From NCBI RefSeq assembly GCF_051903065.1, contig NZ_CP178438.1: DNA of 64,000 nucleotides; one strand, given 5' to 3'. The translations under genes were made by a program, and so were the position numbers. The notes beneath the pieces are model-generated. The model was given only the letters and a program-made list of their open reading frames with translations. It had not been told where the DNA came from and did no database searches. Shown one piece after another: positions 35,035 through 41,178 of this stretch (the first letter of the stretch is position 1; every line of letters begins with the position of its first letter). Source of the stretch: Escherichia coli. GTDB lineage: Bacteria > Pseudomonadota > Gammaproteobacteria > Enterobacterales > Enterobacteriaceae.

Positions 35035-36057
35035 ATGTTTCAGCAGCAAAAAGACTGGGAAACAAGAGAAAACGCGTTTGCTGCTTTTACCATGGGACCG
35101 CTGACTGATTTCTGGCGTCAGCGTGATGAAGCAGAGTTTACTGGTGTGGATGACATTCCGGTGCGCTTTGTCCGTTTTCGCGCACAGCACCATGACCGGG
35201 TGGTAGTCATCTGCCCGGGGCGTATTGAGAGCTACGTAAAATATGCGGAACTGGCCTACGATTTGTTCCATTTGGGGTTTGATGTCTTAATCATCGACCA
35301 TCGCGGGCAGGGACGTTCCGGTCGCCTGTTAGCCGATCCGCATCTCGGGCATGTTAATCGCTTTAATGATTATGTTGATGATCTGGCGGCATTCTGGCAA
35401 CAGGAGGTCCAGCCCGGTCCGTGGCGTAAACGCTATATACTGGCACATTCGATGGGCGGTGCGATCTCCACATTATTTCTGCAACGCCATCCAGGTGTAT
35501 GTGACGCCATTGCGCTAACTGCGCCAATGTTTGGGATCGTGATTCGTATGCCGTCATTTATGGCACGGCAGATCCTCAACTGGGCCGAAGCGCATCCACG
35601 TTTCCGTGATGGCTATGCAATAGGCACCGGGCGCTGGCGCGCGTTGCCGTTTGCTATCAACGTACTGACCCACAGCAGACAGCGATATCGACGTAACTTA
35701 CGCTTCTATGCTGATGACCCAACGATTCGCGTCGGTGGGCCGACCTACCATTGGGTACGCGAAAGTATTCTGGCTGGCGAACAGGTGTTAGCCGGTGCGG
35801 GTGATGACGCCACGCCAACGCTTCTCTTGCAGGCTGAAGAGGAACGCGTGGTGGATAACCGCATGCATGACCGTTTTTGTGAACTCCGCACCGCCGCGGG
35901 CCATCCTGTCGAAGGAGGACGGCCGTTGGTAATTAAAGGTGCTTACCATGAGATCCTTTTTGAAAAGGACGCAATGCGCTCAGTCGCGCTCCACGCCATC
36001 GTTGATTTTTTCAACAGGCATAACTCACCCAGCGGAAACCGCTCTACAGAGGTTTAA
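35035..36057 (+). CDS. pldB: Lysophospholipase L2 (alpha/beta hydrolase), 340 aa
   Basis: GHSMGG nucleophile-elbow motif; length and position. Confidence 0.85.
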   Translation: MFQQQKDWETRENAFAAFTMGPLTDFWRQRDEAEFTGVDDIPVRFVRFRAQHHDRVVVICPGRIESYVKYAELAYDLFHLGFDVLIIDHRGQGRSGRLLADPHLGHVNRFNDYVDDLAAFWQQEVQPGPWRKRYILAHSMGGAISTLFLQRHPGVCDAIALTAPMFGIVIRMPSFMARQILNWAEAHPRFRDGYAIGTGRWRALPFAINVLTHSRQRYRRNLRFYADDPTIRVGGPTYHWVRESILAGEQVLAGAGDDATPTLLLQAEEERVVDNRMHDRFCELRTAAGHPVEGGRPLVIKGAYHEILFEKDAMRSVALHAIVDFFNRHNSPSGNRSTEV

Positions 36058-36064
36058 ATTTCTT

Positions 36065-36865
36065 ATGTACCAGGTTGTTGCGTCTGATTTAGATGGCACG
36101 TTACTTTCTCCCGACCATACGTTATCCCCTTACGCCAAAGAAACTCTGAAGCTGCTCACCGCGCGCGGCATCAACTTTGTGTTTGCGACCGGTCGTCACC
36201 ACGTTGATGTGGGGCAAATTCGCGATAATCTGGAGATTAAGTCTTACATGATTACCTCCAATGGTGCGCGCGTTCACGATCTGGATGGTAATCTGATTTT
36301 TGCTCATAACCTGGATCGCGACATTGCCAGCGATCTGTTTGGCGTAGTCAACGATAATCCGGACATCATTACTAACGTTTATCGCGACGACGAATGGTTT
36401 ATGAATCGCCATCGCCCGGAAGAGATGCGCTTTTTTAAAGAAGCGGTGTTCAAATATGCGCTGTATGAGCCTGGATTACTGGAGCCGGAAGGCGTCAGCA
36501 AAGTGTTCTTCACCTGCGATTCCCATGAACAACTGCTGCCGCTGGAGCAGGCGATTAACGCTCGTTGGGGCGATCGCGTCAACGTCAGTTTCTCTACTTT
36601 AACCTGTCTGGAAGTGATGGCGGGCGGCGTTTCAAAAGGCCATGCGCTGGAAGCGGTGGCGAAGAAACTGGGCTACAGCCTGAAGGATTGTATTGCGTTT
36701 GGTGACGGGATGAACGACGCCGAAATGCTGTCGATGGCGGGGAAAGGCTGCATTATGGGCAGTGCGCACCAGCGTCTGAAAGACCTTCATCCCGAGCTGG
36801 AAGTGATTGGTACTAATGCCGACGATGCGGTGCCGCATTATCTGCGTAAACTCTATTTATCGTAA
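36065..36865 (+). CDS. yigL: HAD-family sugar/pyridoxal phosphate phosphatase YigL, 266 aa
   Basis: Start trimmed to MYQVVASDLDGTLL (HAD motif I); the track ORF (35939) overlaps pldB. Confidence 0.85.
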   Translation: MYQVVASDLDGTLLSPDHTLSPYAKETLKLLTARGINFVFATGRHHVDVGQIRDNLEIKSYMITSNGARVHDLDGNLIFAHNLDRDIASDLFGVVNDNPDIITNVYRDDEWFMNRHRPEEMRFFKEAVFKYALYEPGLLEPEGVSKVFFTCDSHEQLLPLEQAINARWGDRVNVSFSTLTCLEVMAGGVSKGHALEAVAKKLGYSLKDCIAFGDGMNDAEMLSMAGKGCIMGSAHQRLKDLHPELEVIGTNADDAVPHYLRKLYLS

Positions 36866-36940: not shown

Positions 36941-37840
36941 GTGGCGCTACTTATCATCACCACGATTTTGTGGGCCTTCTCCTTTAGTTTTTATGGCGAG
37001 TACCTTGCGGGGCACGTCGATAGCTATTTTGCGGTGCTGGTGCGCGTTGGCCTGGCGGCACTCGTTTTTCTGCCGTTTCTGCGTACCCGTGGCAATAGCC
37101 TGAAAACAGTAGGCCTGTATATGCTGGTGGGCGCGATGCAGCTCGGCGTGATGTATATGCTGAGTTTCCGCGCTTATCTCTACCTGACGGTTTCCGAACT
37201 GCTGCTGTTCACCGTACTGACGCCGCTCTACATCACGCTGATTTATGACATCATGAGTAAACGCCGTCTGCGCTGGGGATATGCTTTTAGTGCCTTGTTG
37301 GCGGTGATTGGTGCCGGGATTATTCGCTATGATCAGGTCACCGACCATTTCTGGACTGGCTTGTTGCTGGTGCAACTCTCCAATATCACTTTTGCCATCG
37401 GCATGGTGGGTTACAAACGCCTGATGGAAACTCGCCCGATGCCGCAGCATAACGCCTTTGCGTGGTTCTATCTTGGCGCGTTCCTGGTGGCGGTAATTGC
37501 ATGGTTCTTGCTGGGAAATGCGCAGAAAATGCCGCAAACCACGTTGCAATGGGGCATTCTGGTGTTTCTTGGCGTGGTGGCTTCCGGGATTGGCTACTTT
37601 ATGTGGAACTACGGCGCGACGCAGGTGGACGCCGGAACGCTGGGAATTATGAATAATATGCACGTTCCGGCAGGGCTGCTGGTAAACCTGGCTATCTGGC
37701 ACCAACAGCCGCACTGGCCAACGTTTATTACAGGCGCGCTGGTGATCCTGGCCTCACTGTGGGTGCATCGTAAGTGGGTCGCTCCGCGCTCTTCACAAAC
37801 GGCAGATGATCGCAGGCGTGATTGCGCGCTGAGCGAATAA
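36941..37840 (+). CDS. yigM: DMT/EamA-family membrane transporter YigM (biotin uptake, BioP), 299 aa, GTG start
   Basis: GTG at 36941; 10-TM hydrophobic product; 3' end overlaps the metR 3' end. Confidence 0.8.
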
Positions 37841-38681
37841 ACGCTTCTGTAATCGGCTGACGCTGCTCGCCATCGCGCACGGCGGCGTACAGTCGGCTCC
37901 ACAAGCCTTCGCCCAGGGTTTTGGTCACCACCAGACCCTGGCGCTCAAAACTCTCTACTACCCAATGCGGCAGGGCGGCAATACCCATCCGCGCGGCAAC
38001 CATCTGAATCAACAATAAGGTGTTATCGACGCTTTTCAGTGACGGGCTGACGCCTGCCGGCTGAAGAAAATGCCGCCAGACATCCAGTCGGCTACGCTGC
38101 ACCGGATAAATCAACAGCGTCTCGCTGGCGAGATCTTCCGGTGTAATACGCGTTTTTGCCGCCAATGGATGGTCAGGTGCTAACACCAGGCGTACTTCAT
38201 AGTCGAACATCGACGAATAATGCAGGCCACTGCGCGGCAGAATATCGGAGGTCATCACCAGATCCAGCTCGCCCTGTTGCAACGCGGGCTGCGGGTCAAA
38301 CGTCACGCCCGATTTAAAATCCATCTCTACCTGCGGCCAGTTCTTATGGAAATTTTCTAACGCGGGCGTCAGCCACTGAATACAGCTATGGCACTCAATG
38401 GCAATGCGCAGACGTGTCTGCTGCGGTTCATTGCAGGCTTGCAGTGCCTGGCTGATTTGCGGCAGCACCTGGTTTGCCAGTTGCAACAGGATTTCTCCCT
38501 GCGGTGTAAAGCGTAGCGGCTGGCTCTTACGCACAAAGAGCCGGAAGCCAAGGCGTTGTTCCAGATCGCTAAACTGGTGAGACAGGGCGGATTGCGTCTG
38601 ATGCAACGTCGCCGCAGCGGCTGCGAGCGAGCCGCAGTTCCGCAACGCTTGTAGCGTTTTCAGGTGTTTTACTTCGATCAT
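37728..38681 (-). CDS. metR: LysR-type transcriptional regulator MetR, 317 aa
   Basis: N-terminal HTH ([23 protein letters not shown]); divergent from metE. Confidence 0.9.
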
Positions 38682-38742
38682 GAAAGTCCTTCACTTCGGC
38701 ATGAATAATTTGCGCTTGAGGAATATACAGTAACCGCCAATT

Positions 38743-38766
38743 ATGGATGTGTAAACATCTGGACGG
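38743..38766. promoter_or_regulatory. Candidate MetJ operator (tandem met boxes) in the metR-metE divergent promoter region
   Basis: Tandem 8-mers AAACATCT GGACGGCT AAAATCCT, each 4-6/8 to the AGACGTCT met-box consensus. Confidence 0.5.
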
Positions 38767-38916
38767 CTAAAATCCTTCGTCTTTTAAATTTATGGTGCGT
38801 TGGCTGCGTTTCTCCACCCCGGTCACTTACTTCAGTAAGCTCCCGGGGATGAATAAACTTGCCGCCTTCCCTAAATTCAAAATCCATAGGATTTACATAT
38901 AATTAGAGGAAGAAAA

Positions 38917-41178
38917 ATGACAATATTGAATCACACCCTCGGTTTCCCTCGCGTTGGCCTGCGTCGCGAGCTGAAAAAAGCGCAAGAGAGTTATTGGGCG
39001 GGGAACTCCACGCGTGAAGAACTGCTGGCGGTAGGGCGTGAATTGCGTGCTCGTCACTGGGATCAACAAAAGCAAGCGGGTATCGACCTGCTGCCGGTGG
39101 GCGATTTTGCCTGGTACGATCATGTACTGACCACCAGTCTGCTGCTGGGTAACGTTCCGGCGCGTCATCAGAACAAAGATGGTTCGGTAGATATCGACAC
39201 CCTGTTCCGTATTGGTCGTGGACGTGCGCCGACTGGCGAACCTGCGGCGGCAGCGGAAATGACCAAATGGTTTAACACCAACTATCACTACATGGTGCCG
39301 GAGTTCGTTAAAGGCCAACAGTTCAAACTGACCTGGACGCAGCTGCTGGAGGAAGTGGACGAGGCGCTGGCGCTGGGCCACAAGGTGAAACCTGTGCTGC
39401 TGGGGCCGGTTACCTGGCTGTGGCTGGGGAAAGTGAAAGGTGAACAGTTTGATCGCCTGAGCCTGCTGAACGACATTCTGCCGGTTTATCAGCAAGTGCT
39501 GGCAGAACTGGCGAAACGCGGTATTGAGTGGGTACAGATCGACGAGCCCGCGCTGGTACTGGAACTACCACAGGCGTGGCTGGACGCATACAAACCCGCT
39601 TACGACGCGCTCCAGGGACAGGTGAAACTGCTGCTGACCACCTATTTTGAAGGCGTAACGCCAAATCTCGACACGATTACTGCGCTGCCTGTTCAGGGGC
39701 TGCATGTGGACCTTGTACATGGTAAAGATGACGTTGTTGAACTGCACAAGCGCCTGCCTTCTGACTGGCTGCTGTCTGCGGGTCTGATCAATGGTCGTAA
39801 CGTCTGGCGCGCCGATCTTACTGAGAAATATGCGCAAATTAAGGACATTGTCGGCAAACGTGATTTGTGGGTGGCATCTTCCTGCTCGTTGCTGCACAGC
39901 CCCATCGACCTGAGCGTGGAAACGCGTCTTGATGCAGAAGTGAAAAGCTGGTTTGCCTTCGCCCTACAAAAATGCCATGAACTGGCACTGCTGCGCGATG
40001 CGCTGAACAGTGGTGACACGGCAGCTCTGGCAGAGTGGAGCGCCCCAATTCAGGCGCGTCGTCACTCTACTCGTGTACATAATCCGGCGGTAGAAAAGCG
40101 TCTGGCGGCGATCACCGCCCAGGACAGCCAGCGTGCGAATGTCTATGAAGTGCGTGCTGAAGCCCAGCGTGCGCGTTTTAAACTGCCAGCGTGGCCGACC
40201 ACCACGATTGGTTCCTTCCCGCAAACCACGGAAATTCGTACCCTGCGTCTGGATTTCAAAAAGGGCAATCTCGACGCCAATAACTACCGCACGGGCATTG
40301 CGGAACATATCAGGCAGGCCATTGTTGAACAGGAACGTTTGGGACTGGATGTGCTGGTACATGGCGAGGCCGAGCGTAATGACATGGTGGAATACTTTGG
40401 CGAGCACCTCGACGGGTTTGTCTTTACGCAAAACGGTTGGGTACAGAGCTACGGTTCCCGCTGCGTGAAGCCACCGATTGTTATTGGTGACGTTAGTCGC
40501 CCGGCACCGATTACCGTGGAGTGGGCGAAGTATGCGCAATCGCTGACTGATAAACCGGTGAAAGGGATGCTGACTGGCCCGGTGACCATTCTCTGCTGGT
40601 CGTTCCCGCGTGAAGATGTCAGCCGTGAAACTATCGCCAAACAAATTGCGCTGGCGCTGCGTGATGAAGTGGCGGACCTGGAAGCCGCAGGAATTGGCAT
40701 CATCCAGATTGATGAACCGGCGCTGCGCGAAGGTTTACCGCTGCGTCGTAGCGACTGGGATGCATATCTCCAGTGGGGCGTGGAGGCCTTCCGTATCAAC
40801 GCCGCCGTGGCGAAAGATGACACACAAATCCACACTCACATGTGTTATTGCGAGTTCAACGACATCATGGATTCGATTGCGGCACTGGATGCAGACGTCA
40901 TCACCATCGAAACCTCGCGTTCCGACATGGAGTTGCTGGAGTCGTTTGAAGAGTTTGATTATCCGAATGAAATCGGTCCAGGCGTCTATGACATTCACTC
41001 GCCAAACGTACCGAGCGTAGAATGGATTGAAGCCTTGCTGAAGAAAGCGGCAAAACGCATTCCGGCAGAGCGCCTGTGGGTCAACCCGGACTGTGGCCTG
41101 AAAACGCGCGGCTGGCCAGAAACCCGCGCGGCACTGGCGAACATGGTGCAGGCGGCGCAGAACTTGCGTCGGGGGTAA
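38917..41178 (+). CDS. metE: Cobalamin-independent methionine synthase, 753 aa
   Basis: Product [27 protein letters not shown]...; length 753 aa. Confidence 0.95.

Follow-up and report, generated by a model that had tools for sequence, protein, structure and literature searches.

The regulation of metE and metR is reportedly the subject of a classical literature, including Plamann & Stauffer 1987, Urbanowski & Stauffer 1989 and Cai et al. 1989, as well as Maxon et al. 1989 and Wu et al. 1993 and 1995. The two genes share metboxes in their common intergenic region (PMC3228920), and both are described as repressed by MetJ (PMC3228920, PMC10505187). Few biosynthetic genes are expressed as highly as metE (PMC3228920), and in E. 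coli reporter assays its expression goes up on metJ knockdown and is activated by MetR in minimal media (PMC10505187). The MetR motif is a 15-bp palindrome, ATGAA-N5-TTCAT (Leyn et al., PMC4239095). One review conflates the MetJ and MetR motifs (PMC3274233), and the motif given there was left out of our analysis.

A second known system bears on this locus. ERIC repeats, also called IRU, are imperfect palindromes of about 127 bp that are enterobacterial and are classed as miniature inverted-repeat elements (MITEs) (PMC3184786). MITEs of the ERIC type carry TA flanks at both ends as a target duplication (PMC3184786), and the sequences of the ERIC-PCR primers ERIC1R and ERIC2 have been published (PMC6196677).

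Here we describe the metR–metE spacer in a 64-kb stretch of DNA, the whole of which was analysed and is referred to below as the window. We found that it has the same three-box MetJ site and the same type of MetR palindrome as the metE–metR region of E. coli K-12 and Salmonella, and that nothing of substance separates it from the K-12 locus. The locus is the textbook, already known metR–metE control region in another E. coli strain.

Results

The spacer consists of a control module and an ERIC element

The window is E. coli chromosome; a 401-bp query that spans the spacer finds 100% identity in many complete genomes of the species. The start codon of metR ends at 38681 and the ATG of metE lies at 38917, with a spacer of 235 bp between them. 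The interval 38682–38916, singled out earlier from the letters alone as a divergent metR–metE control region, is exactly this spacer as judged from the ORF ends, and its identity is borne out by the RefSeq annotation of both genes on identical DNA and by the presence of the published K-12 metboxes. In an alignment with K-12 MG1655 the sole difference in the spacer is one extra A before the metE ATG in K-12.

The spacer is bipartite, with a control module of 93 bp (38679–38771) followed by an ERIC element (38772–38892). We hold this overall model, a MetJ/MetR control module joined to an ERIC element, with high confidence. The features and their coordinates are collected in Table 1.

Table 1 Features of the metR–metE locus, in positions of the 64-kb window
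Feature	Position	Strand	Basis or score
metR coding sequence (LysR-type activator MetR)	37728..38681	-	317-aa ORF; RefSeq metR on 100%-identical E. coli DNA
MetR site 1 ATGAAAGTCCTTCAC, putative	38680..38694	.	9/10 to ATGAA-N5-TTCAT; from sequence
MetR site 2 ATGAATAATTTGCGC, probable	38701..38715	.	conserved ATGAA half-site, degenerate partner, 7/10
Predicted metE -35 TTGAGG	38716..38721	+	read from sequence; five of six columns invariant, sixth at least 90% (79 species)
Candidate metR -10 TACTGT	38727..38732	-	near-invariant block AATATACAGTA; 17 bp from candidate -35 TTTACA
Predicted metE -10 AATTAT	38739..38744	+	pattern nAwTAT kept in 79 species, preceding 6 bp variable
MetJ operator, three tandem metboxes	38745..38768	.	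published matrix; same 24-mer published for K-12
Metbox 1 GGATGTGT	38745..38752		4.47 bits
Metbox 2 AAACATCT	38753..38760		9.34 bits
Metbox 3 GGACGGCT	38761..38768		7.25 bits
ERIC (IRU) miniature repeat	38772..38892	+	imperfect palindrome with ends ATCCT...AGGAT, in predicted metE 5' leader
metE Shine-Dalgarno AGAGGAAG	38905..38912	+	long (ERIC) allele only; sequence and long/short alignments
metE coding sequence (cobalamin-independent methionine synthase)	38917..41178	+	753-aa ORF; RefSeq name on identical DNA

Species-representative genomes were searched with the MetR protein, which gave 80 enterobacterial loci, and the spacer was extracted from 79 of them. In the resulting 79-species alignment, 59 of the first 90 spacer columns are invariant, and conservation collapses abruptly past 38771. 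A contig labelled Chryseobacterium sp. 18061 (CACSKA010000013.1) also carries an enterobacterial metR–metE locus, with a MetR that is 91% identical and with the long ERIC allele described below; it is probably contamination or a mislabelled assembly.

Three metboxes form the MetJ operator

Metboxes were scored with the symmetrised weight matrix and the rule of Augustus & Spicer (PMC3228920 Table 3), under which each box must reach at least 3.145 bits, a quarter of the consensus score, and a site must reach at least 12.58 bits, the consensus score itself. Exactly three octamers of the spacer pass, and these are contiguous and in register. Boxes 1, 2 and 3 match AGACGTCT at 5, 6 and 6 of 8 positions, and the array from 38745 to 38768 totals 21.06 bits against the 12.58 required. 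Table S1 of PMC3228920 lists the identical 24-mer for K-12, both for metE (gap 149) and, as the reverse complement, for metR (gap 63), in an entry of three boxes and 21.08 bits; the corresponding gaps in the window are 148 to metE and 63 to metR. The array is the sole one in the window that passes the metbox rule. Among 100 first-order Markov sequences of 64 kb each, which served as random controls, none had three or more boxes totalling at least 21 bits (best total 18.44), and the mean number of passing arrays was 0.5. Judged from its sequence, the MetJ operator of the window is therefore placed at 38745–38768.

Across species, boxes 2 and 3 both reach the matrix threshold in all 79, and box 1, which is the weak one at 4.47 bits, passes in 71 and fails in the other 8. 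Box 2 stands equally far from the metR ATG in 79/79 species, with no indels between.

The earlier note had read tandem MetJ boxes in AAACATCT GGACGGCT AAAATCCT and had placed them at 38743–38766; these three octamers actually occupy 38753–38776, 10 bases to the right. Its count of partial matches, 4 to 6 of 8, was accurate, as the octamers agree with AGACGTCT at 6, 6 and 4 positions. Under the weight matrix AAACATCT and GGACGGCT pass, and they are two of the three published K-12 metboxes. AAAATCCT fails, and GGATGTGT, which had not been listed, passes. On the matrix scores and the published K-12 site, two of the three boxes had thus been picked correctly, the first had been missed and the third was false.

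The octamers on either side of the array were rejected as metboxes. At 38737–44, the place of a zeroth box, the score is -9.16 bits, which fails the threshold, and at 38769–76, the place of a fourth, AAAATCCT scores -1.91 bits, under the threshold of 3.145, and lies outside the published K-12 site. MetJ extends cooperatively onto poor boxes, and in ERIC-bearing strains the array might extend in this manner onto AAAATCCT as a weak fourth box, with somewhat tighter repression as the result. The octamer is in register, starts with a conserved AAA and is the commonest variant at its position (19/79 species), but its score is well below the single-box threshold and it is absent from the published scan. 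There are 27 variants at this position among the 79 species, the position passes the matrix in just one of them, and it straddles the ERIC junction. We consider a fourth box very unlikely and take the operator to consist of boxes 1 to 3.

Putative MetR sites lie between metR and the predicted metE promoter

Site 1, ATGAAAGTCCTTCAC, is one of only two sites in the window that score 9/10. It shares 2 nt with the metR start codon, and its centre is at about -64 from the predicted metE start. The string ATGAA[A/T]GTCCTTCA is kept in 79/79 species, and ATGAAAGTCCTTCAC at 38680–38694 is likely a real MetR site. The exact pattern ATGAA-N5-TTCA occurs twice in the window, against 0.55 expected. The second occurrence, ATGAAGGTCTTTCA at 36777–36790 (- strand), is inside a 308-aa ORF (35939–36865) two genes upstream of metR, and given two matches against 0.55 expected it may be a chance match.

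Site 2, 21 bp away from site 1, directly adjoins the predicted metE -35 and has its centre at about -43 from the predicted start. Its ATGAA half and a TTGCGC are conserved among the 79 species, and the middle is variable. A score of 7/10 is common in the window, where 189 sites have it, and the support for site 2 consists of conservation and position only. From these, 38701–38715 is probably a second MetR site, and it would serve as the activation-proximal site of a LysR-type regulator. A second MetR site in Salmonella is said to have been described by Wu et al. 1995.

The MetR site suggested earlier, on a TGAA...TTCA farther downstream, does not survive. The string tgaataaacttgccgccttccctaaattca is present at 38850–38879, but its TGAA and TTCA are 22 bases apart rather than five, and the best N5 register of the region (38849–38863) reaches 7/10, a score no better than chance with 189 window sites at 7. 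The string is wholly inside the ERIC element, where it varies among ERIC-bearing species and has GATTCACT as its counterpart in the consensus of other ERIC copies; it is absent altogether from about 61% of E. coli and from 39/79 species. An operator made of AAACATCT GGACGGCT AAAATCCT together with MetR bound at 38850–38879 does have in its favour two genuine metboxes and a string that contains both TGAA and TTCA. Against it stand a third octamer that is low-scoring, unconserved and partly ERIC sequence, and a MetR string with the wrong spacing in a segment that most E. coli lack, and we regard the combination as highly improbable.

The same region could be read in another way, with the ERIC-internal ATGAATAAACTTGCC (38849–38863) as an extra downstream MetR site gained by the strains that bear the element. 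It equals the conserved MetR site 2 in score, at 7/10, and resembles it (ATGAATAA..TTGC). Besides the commonness of that score in the window, the corresponding sequence is GATGAGCACACTTGCC, GATTCATGAACTTGCC or GATGCGCTGTGTCGCC in other long alleles, and an activator would hardly be expected to bind some 100 nt past the predicted start, which leaves this reading scarcely credible. The MetR sites that we retain are those at 38680–38694 and, as the probable one, 38701–38715.

Predicted promoters and proposed control logic

The predicted metE -35 (TTGAGG) and -10 (AATTAT) are separated by a 17-bp spacer and would place the start of metE transcription near 38751. A metR promoter would face it on the - strand, with TTTACA at 38755–50 followed by TACTGT at 38732–27. 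This candidate is a weak match, and TATATT at 38722–38727 (- strand) is an alternative -10. In a scan with consensus promoter and terminator patterns, neither the predicted metE promoter nor the metR promoter was called at threshold, and no - strand site was called. Two promoters that the scan did call are treated as non-functional: ATGAAA-18-AATAAT is actually the two MetR half-sites, and TTCAAA-16-TATAAT (38876–38903) would have its start inside the metE Shine-Dalgarno. The latter is near-consensus (10/12, + strand) and sits at the right end of the ERIC element. CATATAAT is present in the short alleles as well, and there its last bases run into the ATG.

The three-box array overlaps the predicted start of metE transcription as well as the candidate metR -35 (TTTACA, 38755–38750, - strand). 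SAM-bound MetJ on the three boxes would cover both of these, and because one operator lies over both promoters, MetJ would shut metE and metR together. MetR bound at 38680–38694, and more weakly at 38701–38715, would activate metE in the usual layout of LysR-type regulators, with sites near -65 and -45. The MetR sites are situated between the candidate metR promoter and the metR ATG, which would account for autorepression of metR. We infer occupancy of these sites by MetJ and MetR from the arrangement of the sequence.

An ERIC repeat makes up the downstream half of the spacer

The segment 38772–38892 is an ERIC repeat. A blastn search found relatives of it at 39,863 places in 5,417 genomes, with a median of 8 per genome. 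The E. coli copies that we aligned lie at btsT–hpaC, ydiK–ydiJ, tRNA-Gly–orn and ardC–mobH, and all copies examined are intergenic. Matches to the two ERIC-PCR primers are found at 38811–32 (- strand, 17/22) and 38834–54 (+ strand, 16/21), back to back and outward-facing, and nowhere else in the window. The consensus of five E. coli copies contains both primer sequences and is closer to the primers than the window copy is.

The element is like known ERIC/IRU repeats in its length of about 121–125 bp, in being palindromic from end to end, in its central inverted repeat with the primer matches, in having several dispersed intergenic copies per genome and in its position in a predicted transcribed leader. 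It differs from them in that no clean TA target duplication is visible: whichever termini are chosen, a TA can be set at one end or the other but never at both, and the short allele described below is no simple empty site. With regard to mobility, 29 of the 39,863 ERIC-like places are plasmid-borne, and one copy on the E. coli 55989 chromosome has conjugation-type genes on either side, namely an ArdC pseudogene and a MobH relaxase. These 29 copies and the ardC–mobH copy indicate that ERIC copies also travel on mobile elements.

On folding, the 121 nt of 38772–38892 pair end to end. The palindrome is kept across 36 distinct orthologous copies, in which pairing holds in 97.2% of cells and compensatory double changes are seen at 10 of the 28 pairs; the covariation score is 0.248, compared with 0.098 in shuffles (0/500) and with 0.063 or less in slid controls. 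The fold energy of the - strand RNA is -52.4 kcal/mol (z = -8.6), compared with -34.2 kcal/mol (z = -3.3) for the metE-sense RNA. No - strand promoter that would transcribe the element was identified. In the metE transcript the element would form a hairpin within the leader, about 166 nt long, and be followed by the allele-specific Shine-Dalgarno. A 36-codon ORF (38792–38902, + strand) runs through the element with no Shine-Dalgarno upstream and is probably spurious.

An Rfam scan of the spacer detected no riboswitch and no known leader RNA. It gave two sub-threshold matches, Ysr49 (RF02766) at 27.7 bits and V_AS5 (RF02818) at 26.7 bits, and since the gathering scores are 95 and 96, respectively, the ERIC segment falls outside both families. 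The matches are weak, extend over the full models and lie on the - strand over the ERIC element, with GGAAGGCGGC...GCAGCCAAC and the central palindrome in common. This likeness would most simply be explained by ERIC-like sequence in those families.

Long and short metE leaders coexist within species and genera

We found the full-length spacer, with the ERIC element, in 2,099 of 5,425 complete E. coli genomes, K-12 and O157:H7 among them. In the other E. coli (about 61%) the spacer is about 118 bp shorter and has no ERIC element. The difference between the two forms begins directly after GGACGGCTAAA and within E. coli is confined to 38772–38928. Short E. coli alleles have AAGGGG as Shine-Dalgarno, a different leader and different synonymous codons at positions 3–4 of metE. 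A simple insertion or excision between the long and short alleles was rejected, because the downstream 25–45 bp and the Shine-Dalgarno also differ and there is no clean TA duplication.

The same dimorphism is seen among the 79 species, of which 39 have a short spacer (115–123 bp), 39 a long one with ERIC (228–262 bp) and one an intermediate spacer of 186 bp. Both forms occur within Escherichia, Citrobacter, Enterobacter, Kluyvera, Lelliottia and Pluralibacter. Wherever ERIC is present at metE, neither its site nor its orientation varies, and it belongs to one of two subtypes, an E. coli/Citrobacter type and a Salmonella type. The 186-bp spacer contains an ERIC variant in which a central deletion has removed the core inverted repeat, and in the 262-bp spacer of Huaxiibacter the element has an internal tandem duplication (GGGGGATACGTTGC twice). 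As most E. coli and half of the sampled species have a leader of about 48 nt without ERIC, the element is dispensable for methionine control.

In the full-text collection searched, ERIC together with metE or metR returned only noise.

A patch identical to Citrobacter

Between 38710 and 38970 the window has 0 differences over 261 bp from Citrobacter sp. wls619. The identical patch takes in the promoter, the ERIC element, the Shine-Dalgarno and the first 18 codons of metE, without a single synonymous change. The flanks are far less similar, with metR 83.8% and metE 86.2% identical and 4–14 differing sites per 50 bp. These first 18 codons are not universally frozen, since one Escherichia with the short allele has synonymous differences there. 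The identity suggests either a recent recombination patch between the genera or unusually strong constraint.

Discussion

The ERIC element might be a working regulatory part of the metE mRNA, acting through mRNA stability (RNase E) or through a CCUUCC stretch in the element that would compete with the Shine-Dalgarno. The hairpin is kept, with compensatory changes, in the 36 orthologous copies, CCUUCCCUA is paired with the Shine-Dalgarno when the leader as a whole is folded to minimum free energy, and the flanking genes have diverged much further between E. coli and Citrobacter than the leader has. There is also a precedent in Yersinia for an RNase E-mediated effect of ERIC on mRNA, as reported in PMC3184786, which cites De Gregorio 2005. 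Several observations point the other way. The whole-leader fold is ordinary (z = -1.66), folding of the element is much stronger on the strand that metE does not transcribe, palindromy belongs to the repeat family itself, and half of the species do without an ERIC leader. Sequestration of the Shine-Dalgarno, in particular, was rejected for the small difference in its predicted accessibility, 0.51 in the long form and 0.57 in the short. A regulatory ERIC is thus possible but on balance doubtful, and any effect of the element on metE mRNA is spoken of here as conjecture from sequence and folding.

A further reading concerns the two leaders as such. They may be old alternative 5'-UTR cassettes that are exchanged among genera by short-patch homologous recombination and are kept for differing post-transcriptional behaviour of metE. 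In such an exchange the anchors would be provided by the ultra-conserved MetR/MetJ module and, at the opposite end, by the conserved first codons of metE. The presence of both forms in six genera and the 261-bp identity with Citrobacter sp. wls619 are compatible with this, and we regard it as an unlikely, speculative account of the dimorphism.

Little is at stake in the core finding, which re-identifies a textbook regulatory region. The practical gain is a corrected map, with the MetJ operator at 38745–38768 and MetR at 38680–38694 and probably at 38701–38715. Regulator sites should not be sought in the downstream half of the spacer, which is a mobile repeat. Only the leader dimorphism and the patch shared with Citrobacter might repay more work, and their interest is modest. 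Natural strains carry either of two very different metE leaders, and one of these has the look of horizontal exchange. Should the leaders differ in the stability or the translation of the mRNA, laboratory results from K-12, a long-form strain, would not carry over to most E. coli isolates, whose leader is short.
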